NCBI GenBank assembly: GCA_044892505.1
Contig: CM097884.1
Span: 7,564,001 to 7,628,000 of the forward strand
Source of the DNA: Schmidtea nova
Lineage: Eukaryota
Reading direction: 5' to 3'
DNA: 64,000 nt
Part shown: in pieces, positions 28,049-64,000 of the stretch
Position numbering within the stretch: the first letter of the stretch is position 1
Layout: every line of letters begins with the position of its first letter
The notes under the pieces: generated by a model
What the model saw: the letters and a program-made list of their open reading frames with translations, nothing else
What the model was told of the DNA's origin: nothing
The model's database searches: none
Program-made: the position numbers and the translations under genes

Positions 28049-29797
28049 ATGGAAGCTGCACAAATTAAAACCCAACGCAAACCACAAAGTTACCAATCGA
28101 ATGTTGCAATTAAAAAGAACTCAAATCGTACGAAAGAATTCAGTGAGCACAAGAGGCGAATGAGACAATCAATCACCCCAGTTATTGCTACAAGCACAAA
28201 GATAGATATTTCTACCATTGATATTCCAGAGCGCATTAAAGGCAGCTATTTCATTAAGCGAAAGAAGATTAAATCTACTGTGAAACCTGATGATATATTT
28301 GCAGCTAAGAAAGAACAATTTGTTTTATTGAATATATTTTTTTTCTTCTTATTAAATTTATTTGCAGATACTAAAAATGGTGTCAGAAACCCTGATATAA
28401 TATATGAGGCAAACAGAATAGTTTTTATTACTAGTGGATTTTCTCAAAACTCAGCAACATCAACATCAACCGGGTTTACATTTGGACAATTACCGAGCGC
28501 AAAAATCGATTCACTTGAACCATTCAATCAAAATTGGATATCAACGGAATCAACACCGATTATGTTTTTGGTAAAAAAGAAATCAGATGCAATTTTTTCT
28601 TCAATATCAACACTGTCGTCATCGATGTCGTTAAAGTTCATACAGATATCTTCTATAAAGTTGCATATTGTCGTACCGAGCTCAATTTCGTCAAATTCAA
28701 CGATATTTGGTCTAATATCTAAAAGTGACTCAAAACAAGTAGCTGCAAACGTCATTACGAAATTCGCAAACACCAGCATCACTTTTGAACAATTGAGACG
28801 AGATGATTCGGGTTCTTATAAATGCGCTGTTAAAGGAACTACTGAGACCGGGTCAACAATGGAATTGGAAGCCTCGACATTTCAACCAGCCTCAGAAACT
28901 ACATTCTGTCAATCAGTAGAAACAGGAAAGCGTGAAAGTGTCAATTACAACAGGCAATCAGTTGAATACTCAGTCAACATTGTCTCATTACCTGAACAAT
29001 ATGTCATTGGTCAAAGATTTACCATGCAATGTAAAGTTTATCCTCAATTCAAAACTGCTAGTTACTCTTGTCCGTTGCGTAAACTCGACCTCGGCTCCTA
29101 TTCCTGTGTGATTCACAGTTCCACTAACGGAGCGGCGTTGCAGCTGGAAGCGTCTTTTTCTCAAAACAATTGCAACAGCTATTTGGGATTATCGGGCGAG
29201 CGGTATTTTCTATGTATTATTTATAATATTAAATTACATAATATATTATATTTATTTATATTATTTTTATTCATACTAAATTTTAAAATTATTTTTATTA
29301 TCTTTCTCAAAATTCACAAATACCTTGTCCAGTTTTTTGACACATTCAATACAAGTCACGCTCACAACCCCACTCAATCCACCATGTCCAACAACGATTC
29401 TATCGCCACTTTCCCAACATATGTCCTCACGCGTTTCAACCACAAAACACGCCAAATCCCCATTTTCACGGATCTGCGCACTGATATCGCCACCTCCCAT
29501 CTGATTAATAGGAATAAATTTTACATGACGTACAACGGTTTCCCAGTTTCCTCACTCACCGACATTCCACCTAATGCTATAATAGAAATTCATTGCCGCG
29601 TTTTAGGAGGCGTCCGACCCACTATAGAACCGCCTTATTCATCCACTTCACGCCCAATTTTGTTCTTTTTGGATCCCGACGGCACACCCTCGTCGTGGTT
29701 CCGCATTTTCGAATCGCGCACGTCTTCCTTTCCAAAATCACGCCCCGATTACCTACTCGACAGCCTACCATCTGAATTGATAGCCGAGCTTGCCTGA
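28049..29797 (+). CDS. LTR-initiated ORF: basic N-terminus, hydrophobic segment, S/T(FG)-rich region, Ig-like segments, hydrophobic segment, ubiquitin-like domain, Gag N-terminus
   Basis: Continuous open frame. DSGSYKC and DLGSYSC are Ig F-strand motifs. RVLGG is followed by DPDGTPSSWFRIFE (Gag). A frameshift at about 29795 separates it from the rest of Gag. Confidence 0.65.
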   Translation: MEAAQIKTQRKPQSYQSNVAIKKNSNRTKEFSEHKRRMRQSITPVIATSTKIDISTIDIPERIKGSYFIKRKKIKSTVKPDDIFAAKKEQFVLLNIFFFFLLNLFADTKNGVRNPDIIYEANRIVFITSGFSQNSATSTSTGFTFGQLPSAKIDSLEPFNQNWISTESTPIMFLVKKKSDAIFSSISTLSSSMSLKFIQISSIKLHIVVPSSISSNSTIFGLISKSDSKQVAANVITKFANTSITFEQLRRDDSGSYKCAVKGTTETGSTMELEASTFQPASETTFCQSVETGKRESVNYNRQSVEYSVNIVSLPEQYVIGQRFTMQCKVYPQFKTASYSCPLRKLDLGSYSCVIHSSTNGAALQLEASFSQNNCNSYLGLSGERYFLCIIYNIKLHNILYLFILFLFILNFKIIFIIFLKIHKYLVQFFDTFNTSHAHNPTQSTMSNNDSIATFPTYVLTRFNHKTRQIPIFTDLRTDIATSHLINRNKFYMTYNGFPVSSLTDIPPNAIIEIHCRVLGGVRPTIEPPYSSTSRPILFFLDPDGTPSSWFRIFESRTSSFPKSRPDYLLDSLPSELIAELA

Positions 29798-30513
29798 AAT
29801 TAGCCGACGCGCTTTACGCAGACAACCCGTATTATGATCTCAAATCCCTGATAGTGTCAAAATACACCTCATCACAAACTCAAGATCTCACAAAGCTTTT
29901 GGCACCACAAAATTACGCAGGACAACAACCAAGCCTGTTCCTAGCACAGATTGCCCGCTCCAACGACATCGCCATTCCAGATCTGTCCAAAAACATTCAA
30001 CTCTTAAAACACCAATTTCTCTCCGCTCTTCCATATAATCTACAAACCTCCCTCGCATTGGTAGACTCTGAAGACCCGTACCATCTTGCTAAAATAGCTG
30101 ATCGCATTTATGCACTCCAACCCCATAAACCGCGCGCTGATAATTACACACCACCACCGCCACCCTCCATTGTCAACGCAACACATTCACCCGAAAACCA
30201 CTACACCTGCAACGTCACAAAGTATTCCAACTATACACCTCCATTACAGCAAGCACAACGCCATAATCATCCACCTGTTACACGCACACAGAACATACAA
30301 CCCAGTAGCAGCGCAGCACTAATTTGTTTTTTCCACAGCCGATTCAAAAAACATGCACAGAAATGCTGCATTGGTGCCGCTTCCGAATTCCACAATCCTC
30401 ATAACCCAGTCATTCCAATCTGTATCTACCACCATCTATTCAAGAACGAAGACAAATCGTGCATAGATGGATGCACTTGGCACACGACCAGTTACCATCA
30501 TGCAAAAAACTAA
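29384..30513 (+). CDS. gag: UBL-Gag (one frameshift at about 29795)
   Basis: CCACCATG start, 76-aa UBL ending at 29611, NPYYDLK..., then duplicated CxxHxxFxxxxxxC motifs, ending HAKN*. Confidence 0.75.
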
Positions 30514-30558
30514 CTGAGTCATCGGATATTCCTGGACGCTCCGATGACTTCCTGCCAG
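30504..30558 (+). promoter_or_regulatory. -1 ribosomal frameshift signal between gag and pol
   Basis: A AAA AAC heptamer, 6-nt spacer, 10-bp stem AGTCATCGGA/TCCGATGACT. Loop CTGG can pair with downstream CCAG. Pol is in the -1 frame. Confidence 0.85.
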
Positions 30559-33500
30559 TGAACACTCTTCCTCACAGCAAACCACGTCCAGCGTACACAA
30601 TATCAACTCCTCCAGCAAACACCATTTCAGGCATGACCACTACTCACCACGCACGACAATTTCTTCGCACAGCTCAACTAACTACACCACTCAGCACAAC
30701 CCGCACAACACAAACACAAACGCCACCTACAACAAAAACACCATTCTCAGAACCGCCTGCATCATTACCAACATCAACGTGCATAAAACCACTAAAAGCG
30801 CCACTATCAATGCCACAAACACCACTCACCCCTCCTCACTACAAAATTCCCACAGACAACACGAGCATCCTACCACCACCGTTACCGACCACCACCTCCA
30901 CCATTAACAGAGCAACCCTGGCCACATCAATTTTAACCAGAACTCCCGGAAATTTCACCATCACCGCCGAACTGTTAGAAGCACACGGACAACCCAAACA
31001 ACGCACAATAACAGTCCTTATAGACACAGGTTCGTCATATTCAATTCTACCCACCACCTTCACTGCAGACACACCCTGCTCATCCTCCGCCATAGCCGCA
31101 AACGGTACGCACATAATGCTCTCCGGTACGAAAACAATCGAATTTCGCCTTCCCGGCCTTTCTAAACGTTTCACGCACTCATTTTACATTGCCGACACAA
31201 CATTCCCGATTCTAGGTCTCGATTTCTTAACTACCGAAGAAGTGAACATCGACTGTAAAAATAGAAAACTGTATCAACTCCCTCATCCAGTTTCCGCGAT
31301 AGTGTCGCCAAAAACAACAATCACTTTAACAACAGACAACGTAGAATCAGTCATCGCCACAAATTTCCCGAACCTCCTCACCAAGTCTACCACACACGTA
31401 CCCAGCAAATAATCCGTCCATTTCATCACCACTGTTCCGTGCACACCACAAAGCGCTCGTTCCAGGCCTCTGGCTATCAATAGACGACAGGCCGTCGAAC
31501 TAGAATTTTCCGAACTCAAAGACAAAGGCATCATTCGATGCACGTCCTCCCCATGGGCTTCCCCTATCCATGTAGTCACGAAAAAAGATGGCTCCTTCCG
31601 CCCTTGTGGTGATTTTCGAGCGTTGAACAGCGTAACGATTCATGACGCCTACCCTATGCCTCTCATTAAGGACCTATTTTCACGTTTTTCGGGGAATACA
31701 GTCTTTTCAACGATCGACCTCGCCAAAGCATTTCACCAGTTCCCTGTAAATCCAGATGACGTTCCAAAAACAGCTGTAACTACCCCTTTCGGCAATTTCG
31801 GATACTTGTTCATGCCATTCGGCCTTAGGAATGCCGCACAAACACTCCAACGCTTCATGGACATCACTTTCAGACATCTCAGCCACACCTTCGTCTATCT
31901 AGACGATATCATTGTCGCTTCTACTGACGAATCCTCACACGCAAGAGACTTAATACAGGTTTTTGAAGTCCTCGACAAAAATAACCTTCAGATTAGCGTT
32001 GAAAAATGTCAATTCTTCAAGTCGCGCGTCCGTTTTCTAGGACACATACTGTCTGCATACGGATGTGAACCATTCCCAGAAAGGCTAGACATTATCCGGT
32101 CATTTCCCAAACCGTCCACGGTCACAGAGCTTCGCAGCTTTCTCGGAACTGTAAACTTCTGCCACAGATTTATCCCAAACTCGTCCCGCATTACCGCACC
32201 ACTGTCAGCACTCAATCACGGCCCCAAAAAGGCTATAATAAAATGGTCCGACGAAACGGATCAGGCCTTCATCAACGTAAAAAACGCATTGACTAATATC
32301 TCAACGCTGTATTACCCACATAACGACCTGCCATTCACTCTAACCACCGACGCCTCGGACATAGCAGCTGGGGCTGTTCTCCATCAGATTTAAGACAACG
32401 TTTCCCGTCCCATCGAATTCTTTTCCCGTAAATTCTCATTAGCAGAAACAAGGTACAGTGCCTTCGACAGAGAGCTACTAGCCATCGTGCTGGCCGTGAA
32501 ACATTTCCGACACTTCCTAGAGGGTAGACATTTCACAATATTCACTGACCACAAACCTCTCCTACACTGCCTCACCATGAAAGATCCATCGAATAGGGTA
32601 TTTCGTCAACTAGCATTTCTATCATCGTTTGATTTCGTGATCAAACACATAGCAGGTGGAGACAACGTCATTGCAGACTGCCTTTCGCGCGCGATCATAA
32701 CCTCAATATCTTTTTCTCCTATCTTCTCGCTAGATATCCTTTCATCCACGCCTCCTTCTGAGAAAGATATTTCCAGGTTCAAAGACTCCCACAAACTCAT
32801 CGACGGTGTGCATTACGACACATCTTTCAACAATACGCTACGCCCCATTCTACACGAGTCACTTCGCAAAGAAGCGTTTTTCGCAGTTCACAACCTACAC
32901 CATCCCGGCATCAAATCGACATACGCACTACTACGCCAGAAAGTACGCCAGAAAGGTACGCCCTATTCAAAGACGTCAAACGATGGGTAAGTGAGTGTCA
33001 AGGGTGCCAGCAGCATAAAGTTCACAAACATGTCAAACCACCGCTCACCCCTTTCCCTACAGGCTCCCGCTTCGATATTTTGCACATTGATCTCGTGGGA
33101 CCACTTCCGGCGGACAACGGATTCTCCTTCATCCTTACAATGATAGATCGTAAGACGCGCTGGTTCGAAGCAGTACCCATACCCAATATCACAGCACCCA
33201 CTGTTGCAGACTACTTAGTGTCTACCTGGTTTTCCCGTTACGGTATCCCTACAACAATCATTACAGACCAAGGGCGCCAATTCGAATCGGACTTATTTAA
33301 TTACCTGACAAACGCGCTAAGCATTAAACACATACGCACCTCTGCCTATCACCCACAGACCAACGGTCTCGTCGAACGTGCCCACCGCACTATCAAGACC
33401 TCACTTCGTATTCTCGCATCCTCCTCCGGATGGACAAAGTCTCTGCCGTTCGTTCTACTTGGATGGCACAACACACCCAATCGCTCAAGTGGAGTCTCCC

Positions 33501-34048
33501 CGGCACAATTACTGTTCGGCGCTAACACACGCATGCCATCAGAACTTATAGAAACAGACTCCGAATCGTCTCTCCAACAAATAAACCAGGCCCGCAGCCA
33601 CTTCCTAGCTCTAGACTCAAATCCGTCCTTCACATACTCTACCTCTTACAAACCCTACATGCCGCATACTCTTACCTCAACCTCACACGCCTGGTTAAAA
33701 TGCATTGACTCATCCAGTTTGAAGCCCCGGTATAAAGGACCATATCCGATTATCAAAATACACAAAAACACGGCCGAACTATACATAGATGGTACAACAC
33801 ACATCATAAACCTGAACCGCCTAAAACCGGCTCTTATATTAGCGGATCAGGACAACGAACTTCCACTACACCACCAGTCAGATGAAGATCTAACCGAAGA
33901 CCCCACATTTGACCCAGACCCACAGGCTCACCAACCCTTTCCAATTCCGCAGACCGAAACATTTCGCAACCCATTGTCACACAATCGCATCCGCCGTCCT
34001 CCACAGTACCTCTCAGACTACCATCTCGATTTCCACTCAGATCCTTGA
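30504..34048 (+). pseudogene. pol: pol (protease, RT, RNase H, integrase) with two in-frame TAA stops and one frameshift
   Basis: LIDTGSS, YLDDII, TTDAS, DRELLA, HIDLVGP, TDQGRQF, GLVER, YKGPY. Stops at 31410 and 32391, and a TACGCCAGAAAG duplication near 32935. Confidence 0.93.
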
Positions 34049-37000
34049 ATTCGTTTTTTGCCTTTCCCATACGCTCCGCGTACTTCGGCGGGGGCTATTG
34101 TAGTGCCTCCGTTATAATTATATGTTATTATATTATTTAATTAAATGTCATATTATTTATATATTAAAATCAATTATCAATTTATTTATATAAAAAAAAT
34201 CAATTAGTTTAAATCACAAAAAAATCGCACTTTTCACCTTATTCAAAAAACGACAAGCAAGAAGCAATTTACAAAAAATGGAAGCTGCACAAATTAAAAC
34301 CCAACGCAAACCACAAAGTTACCAATCGAATGTTGCAATTAAAAAGAACTCAAATCGTACGAAAGAATTCAGTGAGCACAAGAGGCGAATGAGACAATCA
34401 ATCACCCCAGTTATTGCTACAAGCACAAAGATAGATATTTCTACCATTGATATTCCAGAGCGCATTAAAGGCAGCTATTTCATTAAGCGAAAGAAGATTA
34501 AATCTACTGTGAAACCTGATGATATATTTGCAGCTAAGAAAGAACAATTTGTTTTATTGAATATATTTTTTTTCTTCTTATTAAATTTATTTGCAGATAC
34601 TAAACTGCATTTTTTTTAAAATTGAAATTAAATTTTGAATTGGAGAAAAAATTTTATAATCTGAAAAATATAATTATTAATTATTTAACAAACAAATTTT
34701 TATTACAATGTTTTTTTCATAATAATTACATTTGAAATTTCGATTGCACTATAAAACATTTCTAACGTGAATACATATTGCTATATTATAATAAATTAAT
34801 TAAACTAACACTTTTAAATCAAGATTCAAAAACTATTTTAATATTAAAACAATCTTTTTGTTATATATCAATAATATATAAACCCCCTCTCTTAAGAATC
34901 ATCGGTACACATAGTTTTATATTTCTTATGGAACTTATTAGATATCTTTTCAAAAGTGGTCTTGTTCATACGCATGTTTACGGTGATCCAATAATCCTTG
35001 AATCACTTGGTATCGTTTTTATTTAGTTGTAGTTTCTCTGGAGCGTTCTTCCATTTTTTCTTTTTGTAGATAAGTCCATTTATTAATGAATGCTTGAATA
35101 GAAAAAGGAACATATTATTTTTAATTGGAACTTTAATCATTTTCTTTAGTAACCAACCTCAAATCGCCAATTTGAATCTGTTGATTTTTTGCATGTTTTT
35201 AAAGACTTTATTTGAATATCCTTCATATAATATTTATCATGCTCTAAAAATAAATCATCATATGTGATATCAGCATCCAACTGTACTAATTCCCTCTTTC
35301 ATCACTGCCCATAAGCCTCTCTCTGAATTTGATTAGGATTTTGAACGTGATTCATTGTAAATATTTACATTACGCTTCTTTTGTGGATCCGAGTGCAATA
35401 ATTAGCATTGTTCACATTGTGGTAGTCTGGGCAGGGCTTCTGCGTTTTAACGTTTCTTTCCCATTCGGTATTTAATTTCCATGCTATAAACCTTAAAATT
35501 CCGCTTTCTAAATAAAAAACTGAAAATTCTTTGGAGAATCCCACTTTTAAAACTATTTTAATGTTTGATGATCAGTTCGAATGACAAATTTTCTACCTAA
35601 AAGATAATATATAAAACAAATTTATAGATAATCAAAAGTTCTTTTCGAGTTATAAAATGTTTGCGCTGGGCTGTAGTCATGGATTTTGAGCCGTATGCTA
35701 TAAGCTTTTCTTCTCCATTTTGAATATAAGAAAGAACTGCTCTGATACAGTCATTAGAAGCATTTGTATCCAAATTTAAACCACTACTATGGGCTGGTAA
35801 ATTCAGAATAAGAGTTTCTGTTAGAGCCTCTTTTAACAAATAAAACGCCTCTTCAACTTGTGTATTCATAGAAACCCGTTTTCTTTTCTCAACATATTTT
35901 ATAGGGGTTCCACTTTTTTACCATAATCTTTGATGAACCTTCAGTAATATGGACACATCCTAGCAAATGTTTGTAACTCCTGAATATTCGCTGCTATATT
36001 TATTTTTCTTATTGACAGAATTTGTCCGGATCTATTAAAATATCAGCACCACTAATAATATGACCCAAATACTTTACTTCTTTATTATAAAAGTGCATTT
36101 ATCAAGTGCCAACTTTAAACTTGCTTCCTTTATCCTAGATAAAACTTGATAGAGCTTTTAATTATGTTTTTTCTAACATTCATCCAAATATAAAAACATC
36201 TACTAGATAGATTGCACAAGACTTTTAGTTCTCATTTTGCAAAATAATTGTCATCGTGTTCTGAAATGCTGAGGGTGCTGCACATTACCCAAACGGCGTT
36301 ATCATGCATTCAAACTCCCCACATCTAGTACTAAATGTCGTTTTTTGTACAACATTTTCATTTAATGGTACTTGGTAATATTCACTAACCATATCTAAAG
36401 TTGTAAAATCTTTAGCATCCTCGATGGAGTCAAATAATTTTGAGCTGCTAGATATGGCAAATATTGGTCTAGTTGTTTTGGAACTTATTAGATATCTCTT
36501 CACATATAACTTTAAGCTTCTCTCATCAACAATTTCAGCCAGAATAAAATACTTCCGGCATCTATGAGACACACTGTCTTTGACACAATAAAGTAAAAGA
36601 AGCGTTTCCGGACCGTTTCAGCATCCATTTCAACACCAGGCTACAATAATGTGGTACAATTTATAGGATTATCAAAAATACCATCCTTTTACATATATCG
36701 TAACTTTATGTAAATAATTGAAAATATATAATTAATTGTTTCAAAATTTGGTTGACAGTTTAACACCTATTTTTAGTTGCAGCAATATATTAGCGTAACT
36801 TTGCATTTCAGTTCCATTTATACAGTTTATTGGTAATTTTGGTTTAGTTTCCATAATTTTCTGAAAAATCTTTTTGCTCACTACGTACGTATCTTCTCTA
36901 GTGTCGAACATAATGCGTGTATTAATTCCTCACATTTAATCATTAATACACTTGCTTTCGCACATTAAAGGTTTCTATAATGTAAGTCAAAAATTACCAA

Positions 37001-58130: not shown

Positions 58131-60906
58131 ATAGTAGCCTTAATTATTTTTTAATATTTTATAATGATTTTATTGGATGAAAAAATTTATTTTAATTTTT
58201 TTGTGCTAATTCAATGTTGATGGACGGTTTGTATTTTTTTATGAAAAAAGTCTCGGAAGCTAATCTTTGTAATGAATTTTTGAATCCCTCTTGTAGAATA
58301 TGGCATTTTGTTTCTTCTATAGATGGAGTTGTTTTATGTACTTTCTCCCAGTATTCGTAATAATTACTTGTTTTAATTTTAATGTGTTCATTAAGTCGGG
58401 TGCGAAAAGTTCTATGTGTTTCTCCTATGTAAGTAGCGTCACATTTTTGGCAAGAAAGTTTATATACTATATTTTTGGAAAAGCAAAAGCATCGGGTTGT
58501 GGAACGACAAAGACATTTATGTTTGGAGATGTTGGAAATTGGTGGCTTTCGGAGTTGTGATTTTAACGTTGCGGAGGTTATGAACGTTGGACGGATGTGG
58601 ATAGGCAAATCTGTTTGATTAAAAATGTTGGTGATTTTGTTGGCTGTAGTGTCATTTAGGAAAGGTAATCTTAGATATGTTGTGTGTTTGTTATTGTTAT
58701 TGTGTTTCTGGCGTTTTCTATTGTTGCGTTTATTGTGGTATGGTTCGTTAAGGAAGTATTTCTTTACAAATTCTTCAGGGTATCCATTTTGGAGGAATCG
58801 TGTTTTGAAGTTTTCTAATGTTTCTTGTATTTTGTTTGCGTCTGAACAGTTTCTTATGGCTCTTTTTCTTTCTCCTATTAGTAATGCGATTTTGCGTTGA
58901 AGTGGAACGTGGCTTTTCCATGGGAGGATATGACCGCTATGTAAACTTTTAGAATATAGCTCGGTGTTTGCATTTAGTGTATTTTGGCCTTTTGTGAAAC
59001 TTACTATGTTATCTAAAAACGGTATTTTACCTTCTGTGTTCGGTGTTTCAAAAGTGAATTGTATGTTGGTGTTAGTAGAATTTGCGTGTGATAGGATTTG
59101 ATTGAGAGGGATTGTGGAGACTATGAAGATGTCGTCGATGTATCGTTTCCAGAAAAGTATTTTGTCCCCAAAAAAAAGATATGTTCTTAGATTCTATAAA
59201 GTTCATGTAGAAGATGGCTAAGATGGGAGAAAGGTTATTACCCATGGCTAATCCATGAATTTGTTTGAATGGGTTTTCTTTAATTATGACAGTATCTGAA
59301 TTTATTGCTTATTTTAGAAGTTCTATAAAGTCTTGTTTAGTAAAGTCTGTGAGGTCAGTATTGGCTTTATGAGTTTCAAAGAAAGAAGCTGCGATGTCGA
59401 AAATATTATTCTCTCCGTGAAGAGGAATAGATCCGTAAAGATTGGAAACGTCAAGAGATCCCCAGAAGTACTGTTGTCCTGCGTTTAACGGAAGAGACGT
59501 ATTTGTAATTTCGGAGACGAATTCAGTTGTGTTTTCGTCTCCGAAATTACAAATACGTCTCTTCCGTTAAACGCAGGACCACAGTACTTCTGGGGATCTC
59601 TTGATGTTTCCAATCTTTACGGATCTATTCCTCTTCACGGAGAGAATAATATTTTCGACATCGCAGCTTCTTTCTTTGAAACTCATAAAGCCAATACTGA
59701 CCTCGCAGACTTAACTAAACAAGACTTTATAGAACTTCTAAAATTAGCAATAAATTCAGATACTGTCATAATTAAAGAAAAACCATTCAAACAAATTCAT
59801 GGATTAGCCATGGGTAATAACCTTTCTCCCATCTAAGCCATCTTCTACATAAACTTTATAGAATCTAAGATCATATCTTTCTTTGGGGACAAAATACTTT
59901 TCTGGAAACGATACATCGACGACATCTTCATAGTCTCCACAATCCCTCTCAATCAAATCCTACTAACACCAACATACAATTCACTTTTGAAACACCGAAC
60001 ACAGAAGGTAAAATACCGTTTTAGATACCATGGTAAGTTTCACAAAAGACCAAAATACACTAAATGCAAACACTGAGCTATATTCTAAAAGTTTACATAG
60101 TGGTCATATCCTCCCATGTAAAAGCCACGTTCCATTTCAAGGCAAAATCGCAATACTAATAGGAGAAAGAAAAAGAGCCATAAGAAACTGTTCAGACGCA
60201 AACAAAATACAAGAAACATTAGAAAACTTCAAAACACGATTCCTCCAAAATGGATACCCTGAAGACTTTGTAAAGAAATACTTCCTTAACGAACCATACC
60301 ACAATAAACGCAACAATAGAAAACGCCAGAAACACAATAACAATAACAAACACACAACATATATAAGATTACCTTTCCTAAATGACACTACAGCCAACAA
60401 AATCACCAACATTTTTAATCAAACAGATTTGCCTATCCACATCCGTCCAACGTTAATAACCTCCGCACCCTTAAAATCACAACTCCGAAAACCACCAATT
60501 TCCAACATCTCCAAACATAAATGTCTTTGCCGTTCCACAAACCGATGCTTTTGCTTTTTCAAAAATATAGTATATAAACTTTCTTGTCAAAAATGTGACG
60601 CTACTTACATAGGAGAAACACATAGAACATTTTGCACCCGACTTAATGAACACACTAAAAACAAAACCAGTAATTATTACGAACAATGTGAGAAAGTACA
60701 TAAAACAACTCCATCTATAGAAGAAACAAAATGCCAGATTCTACAAGAGGGATTCAAAAATTCATTACAAAGATTAGCTTCCGAGACTTTTTACATAAAA
60801 AATACAAACCGTCCATCAACATTCAATTCGCACAAAAAAATTAAAATTAATTTTTTCATCCAATAAAATCATTATAAAATATTAAAAAAATAATTAAGGT
60901 TACTAT
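58131..60906. mobile_element. Palindrome of two diverging 5'-truncated Penelope-like copies
   Basis: Arms 58131-59521 (-) and 59534-60906 (+) with a 12-nt spacer. GLAMGNNLSP, WKRYIDDIF, VYKLSCQKCDATYIGET. Confidence 0.92.
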
Positions 60907-61109
60907 AGTAGGTAGATGTGTGGAGTCAAACACAAAGAAATGAGTCATAATGCGTGGGCGGAAAATTTTAAACAAAGAACTTTTTTTCGGAACCCCCCCC
61001 GGGGGGGAAGGGGGGGGGGTCAAATTTTTTTTTTTTTTTTTTTTTCGCGCCAAATTTAAATTTGAAAATTTTTTTTTTGAAAATTTTTTCGCGCCAAATT
61101 TAAATTTGA

Positions 61110-61470
61110 AAATTTTTTAACATAAAATATTTTAACACAAATTTTTTTTTTTTTAACACAAAATTTTTTAACACAAATTTTTTTTTTTAACACAAAATTT
61201 TTTAACACAAAATTTTTTAACACAAATTTTTTAACATAAAATTTTTTAACATAAAATTTTTTAACACAAAATTTTTAAACACAAAATTTTTTAACACAAA
61301 ATTTTTTAACACAAAATTTTTTAACACAAAATTTTTTAACACAAAATTTTTTTAACATAAAATTTTTTAACATAAAATTTTTTAACACAAAATTTTTAAA
61401 CACAAATTTTTTCAACACAAAATTTTTTAACACAAAATTTTTTAACACAAAATTTTTTAACACAAATTTT
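61110..61470 (+). repeat. About 15-bp tandem repeat (AACACAAAATTTTTT)
   Basis: Visible array. Confidence 0.95.
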
Positions 61471-62351
61471 TTTTTCTTACAAATTTTTTTTTTTCAAAAT
61501 TTTTTTTTTTTTAAACAAAGAACTTTTTTATGCGTGGGCGTAAAAAATTTAAACAAAGAACTTTTTTCAATGCGTGGGCGTAAAAAATTTTTAAACAAAG
61601 AACTTTTTCGAGACCCCCCCCCGGGGGGGGCTAATTTTTTTTTGTTTTTTTTTTTTCAAAAATTATTTTTTCGCGCCAAATTTATAATTGTAAATTATTT
61701 TTTTTTTTTTTAACATAAATTATTTTAACAGAAATATGAGTCATAGAAAAGTTTGCAACACGCGTGCAACTTAAACAAAGACAATGCAATACACGTGCAA
61801 CATGAACAAAGACATTGAAAATAAAATTTATTTATAAATATATCGTTGTGTACGTGTACAAAATTTAGTTTCAAAATTATTTACATCTGAATTATTACTC
61901 GGAATATTATTCATAGGAATATTATTCATTGTAATATTATTCATCGGAATACTAGTATTTTTCGGAATATTATTCTTTGGAATATTTGACATCTTCTCCA
62001 ACCGTATGGATGCCGATAATATCATTATAATTATTAATATAAATAAACTTATATAATGTAATACAATGGCTGTATTTCATTTTCAACTGTTTGATTTTGG
62101 TATCTGTTCGTCTGTGTGTGCCTTTTGATTTTCTATTCGCATCTGTATGCGCTTAATTTTGAAACCTTATTTTGCTCGCGTCTGTGTGCGCGATTTTGTC
62201 TGGGTAATTTTTTAGATTGTTGTTGATTGAGTTTTTTATTGATTTTTAGCTTTAGAGGAATTTATTGTTAGATTGGTTGTTTTATTATTCGAGATTTTGA
62301 GGGAATTTAGATTTTTTTGATTCAAGAATTGAAATTAATTTAAATACAACT

Positions 62352-64000
62352 ATGAATGAAAGCGAAAACGAAGTAGAAAACGATGAAGTTAATAATACTG
62401 ATTTATCTGACGACGATTTAACAGAAAATGATGAAAAAGAAGATGATGATATGAATACAGATGATAATGAAAATAATCCAGCAAAAGAAGACACAATGCT
62501 TTCTGAAAACAAAGATAACAATTCTATAGAAGCTGATGTGGAAATCTCAGAAATTAACTCCCATATCAGATATCGCTTTCGCAATGATTCAAATGAACTC
62601 TTCAGATGTCGCTTTCGCAATGATTCAAATGAACTCTTCAGATGTCGCTTTCGCAATGATTCAAATGAACTCTTCAGATGTCGCTTTCGCAATGATTCAA
62701 ATGAACTCTTCAGATGTCGCTTTCGCAATGATTCAAATGAACTCTTCAGATGTCGCTTTCGCAATGATTCAAATGAACTCTTCAGATGTCGCTTTCGCAA
62801 TGATTCAAATGAACTCTTCAGACTGAACCTTCTTACACTGATTAATAATAAAATCCTTGGAATAGTGTTACTTTTTATCAAAAACATTAATTTGATTATA
62901 GCTCGAACATTTGGGCCTTTTGGTCAAATTTTCTGTGATTTTGGATCAAATCATGTAGTTATGAAAACAAATAAAGATTCTCACTCGGACGTTCAATCAA
63001 TGATTTACCATGGTAGCAGAGCGTGGTTCCCACCGGGGGGCCACGCACACTCTGGAAAGCCGTTAGTCGACCTTTTTATTAAACATTCTTTTATGCCTTT
63101 TGTAAAAATATTAAAATGGGTTAAATTTGTAATTGGAGTATGGACCAACATTCCCTCCCAGGCGCGTTTTGAATGGAAAGTGAAAGTTGGAATGGCTTGG
63201 CCACCGGATATTGTGAAAGACGGCTGCTATGGGCCCCAGCATTCTTTTAAATTCCGGGAAATGTTGCAACAAGATAAAATTTTGAAAGGCTTAGAACCTT
63301 TTGTAGGAATAAGGGGAGATAAAAGTAATCATAAAAAGTTCTATAATCAAATTGTTAAAAATATTAAATTGGGTAATCATGAAGACAGGGTAAATATGAA
63401 TAGAATAGGGAGATTATTGAGTTTTTATTCAATAGCAAGTGGTGATGAAAGGACAAGTCTAAAGGATAATAGTTCGCGAGTGAAAGAAAAGGAAACGGAG
63501 TCCACTTTACATTTTGTTTTGCGATTGAGACGTGGAATACAGATTTTTGTTAAGACTCTAACAGGTAAAACCATAACATTGGAAGTTGAACCGAGGGACT
63601 CTATTGAGAAAATAAAAGCCAGGATCCAAGAGAAAGAGGTAATCACGCCTGATCAACAGAGATTGATATTTGCAGGTAAACAATTAGGAGGCGAAAGAAT
63701 CCTGTCAGATTACCACATTCAAAAGGGGTCTACTATTCATCTGGCACTGAGATTGTGTGGAAGGAATGATGAAGAGGAGGAATTAGAGGAAGGATTGAGA
63801 AAGAAGAGGAGTGTCAAATATAGATTGACGAAATTAAGAAACAGGTGGATGAATGATATGTTGGCAGAAGATGCAACACATGTCCTTGATGAATATCAGG
63901 AAGCTATGGAAAGTGCCATAGAGAGTTTTGAAAGAATGGTGGATATTAGTAAAAGATTAGGAAGGTCAGATACAACAACGGGGCTAGAAGCGGACTTACA
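62352..64000 (+). CDS. Intronless mosaic ORF, open to the window end (at least 549 codons): acidic N-terminus, 7x [11 protein letters not shown](C), UBA1-like fragment, ubiquitin domain
   Basis: Manual translation shows no stop from ATG 62352. [17 protein letters not shown] near 62895, [13 protein letters not shown], then [19 protein letters not shown]...[11 protein letters not shown]...[12 protein letters not shown] (63537-63764). Not in the supplied ORF track, probably because it lacks a stop. Confidence 0.85.
62566..62822 (+). repeat. Seven near-perfect tandem copies of a 36-bp unit
   Basis: TCGCTTTCGCAATGATTCAAATGAACTCTTCAGATG repeated with no spacers. Confidence 0.97.

Follow-up and report, generated by a model that had tools for sequence, protein, structure and literature searches.

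What kind of gene joins a piece of the E1 enzyme UBA1 to ubiquitin in one intronless frame? The question is raised by the end of the window, that is, the whole stretch of 64,000 nucleotides of Schmidtea nova DNA analysed here (the genome is AT-rich and 1.25 Gb in size). The frame is free of stop codons from the ATG at 62352 up to the window end at 64000, and its extension past the window, which had been proposed as a check, completes an ORF of 1,632 aa. An initial annotation, made from the letters of the window, took this frame for a mobile element's mosaic and supposed that it encodes a protein of a virus-like element. The mobile nature of the frame is borne out by long terminal repeats (LTRs), a target site duplication (TSD) and more than 500 copies, and the ubiquitin tail (LRLRRG) and full unit (LRLCGR) that had been described are both present in one open frame. 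The HSP90 piece, the LTR, the primer-binding site (PBS) and the Gag region had been missed (Table 1).

Table 1. Features of the retrotransposon and its insertion site, in window positions
Feature	Position	Strand	Remarks
Polinton/Maverick-like left terminal inverted repeat (TIR)	60900..62104 (start approximate)		retrotransposon inserted here
TSD GTATC, 5 bp	62100..62104	+	second copy after the 3' LTR
5' LTR, 906 bp, TG..CA	62105..63010	+	3' LTR of 870 bp at G000:C3:7631376-7632245, outside the window
Front of the ORF	62352..64000	+	order: LTR cargo, PBS read-through, HSP90 piece, ubiquitin, Gag and onwards
Acidic cargo with start ATG	62352..62567	+	longer version in the LTR of copy L128
Seven 36-bp tandem units (12-residue repeat)	62571..62822	+	unit number varies; length divisible by three
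UBA1 (E1) fragment	62883..62961	+	96% over 79 nt to host UBA1
AATAAA	62970..62975	+	about 40 nt before LTR end; candidate poly(A) signal
PBS TGGTAGCAGAGCGTGG	63011..63026	+	translated in frame as HGSRAW
HSP90 middle-domain fragment	63255..63497	+	Pfam E 2e-12; 27-nt in-frame deletion
Tail of upstream ubiquitin unit	63498..63536	+	ends LRLRRG
Full ubiquitin unit	63537..63764	+	Pfam E 6e-25; ends LRLCGR in the window copy, LRLCGG in the family
BEL/Pao Gag N-terminus	63765..64000	+	DUF1759 next, aa 602-746

A BEL/Pao retrotransposon inside a Polinton-like element

The frame in the window is no virus gene; it forms the first part of a Gag ORF, which belongs to a young LTR retrotransposon of the BEL/Pao type. 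The 5' and 3' LTRs differ by a single 36-bp unit and show 0 mismatches otherwise, which marks the insertion as very recent. An empty site with a single GTATC is found in the right TIR of the surrounding Polinton-like element and in loose ends of run contigs. Beyond the window, the 3' LTR is preceded by a polypurine tract. Ahead of the ORF start, at 62147, there is also a short frame with an ATG of its own. As expected of a BEL/Pao element, the window copy encodes a DUF1759 Gag, which in this element carries Cys-His knuckles, and an aspartic protease. The protease is followed by an acidic/coiled-coil insert with no usable match in the Atlas and only weak matches in Pfam, and a domain scan of the 1,632 aa found no RT, RNase H or integrase. 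The window copy is a very recent, RT-less, non-autonomous derivative with a rare change of Gly76. An ordinary spliced host gene, considered as a candidate, is ruled out by the 500 and more copies, the LTRs and the TSD.

The sister copy L062 has HSP90, ubiquitin, DUF1759, protease, RT, A17, integrase and DUF5641 in one frame of 2,234 codons, and its RT motif is matched at 143 places in the genome. Tandem arrays of copies that share LTRs, with a period of 6,988 bp, occur at G000:C1:453336001-453366000 (L032-L034) and in L063; each arrayed copy has an open frame of more than 2,300 codons. In the RT-less subfamily the whole 1,632-codon frame is open, and the insert (L021:4720-6247) is common to several other copies. 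Translation-coupled packaging or escape from nonsense-mediated decay is possibly what the open frame serves in this subfamily. In L043 (G000:C53:30143-33985) the tail of the window copy's ORF is joined in frame to a long N-terminal piece of HSP90, which exemplifies a second type of capture, internal to the element, among non-autonomous copies.

Over about 1.2 kb the left TIR matches, at 93.7% identity, an inverted copy situated about 17 kb past the 3' LTR. Between the TIRs are ORFs for a protein-primed polymerase (pPolB), an rve+chromo integrase, a candidate double-jelly-roll-like (DJR-like) capsid and a TBP-like protein. The virus genes that had been predicted thus exist downstream, and since the retrotransposon sits in the Polinton TIR they belong to its landing site. 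The alternative that the ORF is itself a Polinton gene was rejected: it has its own LTRs and TSD within the TIR, and other copies lie in simple-repeat flanks. The Polinton-like element spans G000:C3:7631000-7649300 (L021-L023) in addition to its part in the window. Its integrase is split across two frames, the match to an A32 ATPase is weak and the TBP-like ORF (Pfam E 5e-14) is on the opposite strand; PDB and phage searches gave no matches for the polymerase's N-terminal portion and for the capsid. Two inverted, partly broken Penelope-like RT/GIY-YIG copies, recognized by eye in ORF translations, adjoin the Polinton end at 58192-60866. Further upstream in the window are two broken Ty3/Gypsy-like elements (27917-34619 and 49558-53072). 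A long frame of the first, at 27917-29797, has its start repeated at 34194-34619 and may, like the ORF described here, start within an LTR.

Host mRNA pieces in the LTR and the Gag frame

Sixty copies were taken from the first 100 listed matches to a pattern at the ubiquitin-Gag junction, all on contig C1, with tandem duplicates skipped. Being picked by an intact junction and from contig C1 alone, this sample favours young copies. In these sequences the middle of the LTR is an exchangeable cassette made up of pieces from spliced host mRNAs. The LTR peptides vary among copies and include ThiF/UBA1, TCP-1 chaperonin (CCT), FKBP plus TPR, Dcc1 (DCC1), HECT and PAC1/PSMG1. Counted over 56 LTRs, FKBP-TPR occurs in 18, CCT in 15, PSMG1 in 10, UBA1 in six and HECT in three. 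A Pfam scan of 19 LTR peptides left six with no match and four with weak matches only, and many cargoes are mosaics of several pieces. The commonest cargo, FKBP-TPR, is found in L133, L092, L095, L104 and others, and its FKBP domain matches FKBP6 best (58.8 bits); the gene that donated it was not located.

Two cargoes were traced to their donor genes in the host. The sister copy L106 carries 212 UBA1 codons at about 99% identity, together with the host ATG and 17 nt of the 5' UTR exon, and lacks two introns of the host gene, of 83 and 44 nt; the PSMG1 cargo of L063 lacks one intron. Both cargoes end 49-55 nt from the LTR end. At the UBA1 junctions, words of 7 nt and 9 nt are shared (read by eye and without a null model). 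The host has two near-identical UBA1 genes, L080 and L081 (G000:C2:400.42 Mb and C1:277.91 Mb). The UBA1, PSMG1, CCT, FKBP and DCC1 cargoes lie within the LTR, as does the cargo of L062, which has a complete Pol; the internal captured pieces are HSP90 and ubiquitin only.

The UBA1 piece of the window copy, as had been proposed, is real. The peptide gives a weak match (phmmer E 0.004 against PDB), but at the DNA level the piece is 92% identical over 92 nt to the UBA1 gene of the same genome, and more so over its core (Table 1). It is the remnant of a longer capture of spliced mRNA, overwritten from its 5' side. The acidic segment ahead of it is probably another captured mRNA piece; its donor was not found among 40 scored matches, all of which are 100% identical and were taken as element copies. 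The AATAAA near the LTR end recurs in other copies inspected. The HSP90 piece is 76% identical in nucleotide sequence to host HSP90.

The PBS could be placed in 56 of the 60 copies. In 51 of these 56 the Gag frame stays open through at least 100 codons of the LTR upstream of the PBS; the other two frames do so in one and none, respectively. In 32 of the 60 copies a Met situated 100 or more codons within the LTR opens an unbroken frame that runs through the fetched start of Gag. The spacing between PBS and ubiquitin, measured in 52 copies, takes 23 distinct lengths, 17 of which are in frame; all ten lengths that occur in two or more copies are in frame, and the six off-frame lengths are each found in a single copy. 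Omega was estimated from changes common to three or more of the 36 copies (of the 60) that are open across the region. By this tree-free method, with its small counts and its sensitivity to recombination, omega is 0.88 for the leader (binomial p 0.34), 0.77 for HSP90 (p 0.23), 0.36 for ubiquitin (p 0.01) and 0.25 for the Gag N-terminus (p 3e-8). FKBP and CCT cargoes give 0.6-1.2 on few changes. When compared with the host, the HSP90 piece has a dN/dS of 1.1-1.4, and values of about 0.45 for PSMG1 and 0.6-0.8 for UBA1 include host-side divergence and ragged alignment ends. The spacer frames and the omegas together thus indicate that every part keeps the frame, while amino acids are preserved chiefly in ubiquitin and Gag: ubiquitin is constrained, and the pieces of the leader and of HSP90 look neutral. 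There is strong support for the view that a capture survives only when it leaves an ATG and a frame that is open into Gag.

The ubiquitin unit in the family and in its relatives

The full ubiquitin unit of the window copy is identical to a host unit in 56 of 76 residues. The initial annotation had described both di-Gly sites as destroyed and the I44 patch and K48 as retained. I44 and K48 are indeed kept in this copy, but V70 of the hydrophobic patch is replaced by Ala; Met1 is Ile. Met1 is Ile or Thr in all 23 copies tabulated. The proposed capture from a polyubiquitin transcript is judged right, as an upstream tail and a full unit are present. Synonymous sites of the unit are saturated with respect to all ten host units found (pS 0.68-0.94).

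The loss of both di-Gly sites is true of the letters of the window and does not extend to the family. A comparison of copies, which had been suggested, was made with a 28-nt junction pattern in which one base of one glycine codon was varied: 499 copies have C-G-G-N-D-E and four have an altered first base of the Gly76 codon, so the non-cleavable state is rare and is no family trait. Two of the four altered copies, the window copy and one other, have Arg and two have Trp. The ratio 499:4 speaks for the rarity of the loss only, as four changes at one site among 503 young copies are near what drift might yield. The codon is GGG in 19 of the 20 closest copies fetched, and contigs from four runs (type unrecorded) cover the element with G at 63762. 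The Gly-Gly that a fusion signal needs right before Gag is accordingly found in the family and is missing from the window copy itself. In the upstream ubiquitin tail, loss is frequent, the di-Gly being eroded in many copies to RRG, RSG, RRR or RGG.

Older or separate BEL/Pao families with ubiquitin before Gag are also found in this genome (L046-L048, L051-L053, L061, L076, L079), and some of them have two units and keep R74. The unit of one other such family is synonymously unrelated, which suggests renewed capture; a pattern for the R74-keeping sister family gave no matches.

When the HSP90-ubiquitin-Gag region was used to search the databases, polyubiquitins dominated the matches. By the Gag region, database relatives at 31-42% identity in Gag were obtained, and in seven of the top nine matches a Pfam ubiquitin stands ahead of Gag, while the other two start within the ubiquitin tail. 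PF00240 occurs in no Gag homolog outside the clade among the best 120 of 133 matches. The relatives, L062 and P0197 (which begins inside Gag) form one branch (SH-aLRT 98) in a tree of the RT region made by a quick method from 84 of 119 rows and without the Flow, Sinbad and Pao reference superfamilies.

Of 76 residues, the relatives' ubiquitin-like units have 18-59 in common with host ubiquitin, the lowest value being 24%. Leu-x-Gly-Gly is found at the junction in all ten clade members that cover the region (eight full and two truncated units). Among the eight full units L73, G75 and G76 are kept in all, K48 in five, R72 in four, I44 in three, R74 in one and V70 in none. The PBS is read through as GSRAW/C in four database relatives. 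Some of the relatives with ubiquitin before Gag have other cargo, namely kinesin plus Sec24, TRAF fingers or HSP90. The Sec24 cargo of P0126 is 69-79% identical to its best match in this genome, so at least this element resides in a different host. The leaders of P0125, P0126, P0128 and P0129 have in common a "YGP" stretch; the corresponding window segment 63228-63237, TATGGGCCCC, holds a palindrome, which could be an RNA dimerisation or packaging signal. Residues 25-65 of P0131, its N-terminal cargo, have no Pfam match; by eye, we take them to resemble a piece of a SENP8/Ulp1-type protease.

Proposed processing of the polyprotein and comparison with known systems

The reading that is preferred here, with a probability of roughly two in three, is that this BEL/Pao clade makes a polyprotein started in the LTR, with captured leaders and a ubiquitin-like processing signal at which a host deubiquitinase frees Gag. 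Gag, or Gag-Pol, would be made as one polyprotein with its translation start inside the 5' LTR, presumably at the cargo ATG because Met1 of ubiquitin has been lost. While copying the LTR, the RT would switch at short stretches of microhomology to spliced mRNAs of the host that are co-packaged, and would rewrite the middle of the LTR; only those captures would survive that leave an ATG followed by a frame open into Gag. A host deubiquitinase would cut after Gly-Gly, removing the leader and freeing a uniform Gag N-terminus, and the leader would thereby become exchangeable. The captured pieces would mostly be passengers that provide a start codon, a 5' UTR and an open frame; with the upstream part arbitrary, a ubiquitin-like unit ending in Leu-x-Gly-Gly would consequently be retained directly before Gag. 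Cleavage and expression of the polyprotein are what we infer from the sequences.

Against this reading stand the short ATG frame at 62147, ahead of the ORF start, and the poor retention of R72 and R74, arginines that matter to many deubiquitinases or are preferred by them; a UBL of 24% identity may also be a poor substrate. The drift of the relatives' units to this level, with R72 and R74 not conserved, and the protease encoded by the element itself would suit a ubiquitin that assists folding or solubility or serves as an insulating domain, either staying on Gag or removed by the element's aspartic protease, with Gly-Gly as a hinge or protease site. This is rather unlikely, given that L73-x-G75-G76 is exact and in register in 10/10 members and that the upstream di-Gly, which would make an equally good hinge, has eroded. 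The initial annotation's own suggestion, a virus-like protein in which a non-cleavable ubiquitin is a decoy or a proteasome-targeting UBL, agrees with the letters of the window copy and with the surrounding Polinton. It is nevertheless very improbable: the ORF lies between LTRs and a TSD of its own, the family keeps the di-Gly that a decoy should have lost, and the residues that a decoy would need, I44 and K48, drift in the relatives while the C-terminal Leu and glycines do not.

The cargo could instead be selected for its effect, the leaders or small RNAs disturbing the chaperone, ubiquitin or piRNA machinery of the host, or the host-gene sequence shielding the element from silencing. Proteostasis genes are abundant among the pieces, both in the LTRs and, as HSP90, internally, and the best match of the FKBP domain is to FKBP6; FKBP6/Shutdown and HSP90 act in piRNA biogenesis according to the accounts in PMC3463805 and PMC4231750. 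However, the pieces have been shortened, overwritten and exchanged, omega lies close to 1 for the leader and for HSP90 and spans 1 for FKBP and CCT, and DCC1, Sec24, kinesin and TRAF-finger pieces are captured as well, which makes this slightly less probable than a structural or self-cleaved linker. The least probable explanation of all is that the open frame is an accident of youth, a recent coding capture being open by descent without selection. Tan et al. explain young in-frame retrocopies in this way in their treatment of the subject (PMC5131818), and the UBA1 cargo of L106 is still nearly identical to the host gene. A captured piece is open in its own frame, but here many independent junctions and the 17 spacer lengths fit the Gag frame, and the read-through of the PBS recurs in distant relatives.

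The reading with a deubiquitinase-cleaved signal can be widened, in a form that is tentative and rather doubtful. The ubiquitin-like linker would uncouple Gag from its start, the LTR would be a rewritten and translated cassette, the leaders would end in Gly-Gly, and capture would be biased to chaperone, ubiquitin and piRNA mRNAs (FKBP6-like, HSP90), the reason being either that they are packaged along with the machinery by which the element is handled and silenced or that they act against it.

LTRs are regarded as control sequence without coding function, and an element that captures genes usually loses its autonomy. This family of more than 500 copies appears to have made capture a routine part of its life cycle, with ubiquitin as a removable linker. 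The prediction follows that a host deubiquitinase is an essential factor for a retrotransposon. The cargo would be a dated record of the mRNAs packaged in the element's particles, and hundreds of translated host-gene chimeras would be scattered across the genome. For annotation this is a hazard, as dozens of false UBA1, HSP90, CCT or PSMG1 paralogs may result.

Among known systems, the Polinton/Maverick elements are represented by the surrounding element, with its pPolB, rve integrase, DJR-like capsid and TIRs, which is the landing site only and does not own the ORF. The retrotransposon itself resembles the BEL/Pao elements surveyed by de la Chaux and Wagner (2011, PMC3118150) in its LTRs, 5-bp TSD, PBS, polypurine tract and DUF1759 Gag with Cys-His knuckles, and, in the sister copy L062, in the order protease-RT-A17-integrase within one ORF. 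It differs from the elements described there in that its ORF begins within the LTR and runs across the PBS and that a ubiquitin unit precedes Gag; the word "ubiquitin" is absent from the main text of that survey. The Burro giant Gypsy elements of planarians, as described by Arkhipova and Yushenova (2019, PMC6431247), are likewise LTR elements with a polyprotein in which host-like domains occur, one being a Ubi2/SUMO-like motif. Unlike the present element they are Gypsy elements of more than 30 kb with an N-terminal Gag and accessory domains behind it, and that description has no LTR-borne swappable cargo.

Extra domains in plant elements are already known (PMC9289625), as is capture by template switching in LTR elements (PMC5131818). 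No account of a ubiquitin-Gag BEL/Pao element or of in-frame capture inside an LTR was found in the literature searched, with Repbase reports and supplements outside its scope. In the LTR-mediated retroposition treated by Tan et al. (2016, PMC5131818; maize Bs1 and Pao BATUMI chimeras), the captured mRNA pieces are similarly partial, intron-less, in sense orientation and derived from several genes. Microhomology is reported there at the junctions; the 7- and 9-nt words seen here may be of the same kind. Those retrocopies are flanked by discontinuous pieces of the element and move as non-autonomous passengers. Here, in contrast, the cargo lies within the LTR, even beside a complete Pol, is in frame with Gag and is continually turned over in a family of more than 500 copies.

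The cytopathic pestiviruses (BVDV Osloss, CP Rit) have, in the accounts of PMC8310069 and PMC13517609, a captured cellular ubiquitin in frame before a polyprotein domain, often with a second unit or another mRNA piece ahead of it, as a signal cleaved by the host; in cytopathic BVDV, host ubiquitin C-terminal hydrolases (UCHs) cut ubiquitin from NS3 (PMC8310069). The pestivirus insertions are sporadic and occur in an RNA virus, whereas the module described here is an old, fixed and diverging part of a retrotransposon clade. The removable ubiquitin linker proposed for this clade would be the same device as that of the cytopathic pestiviruses.
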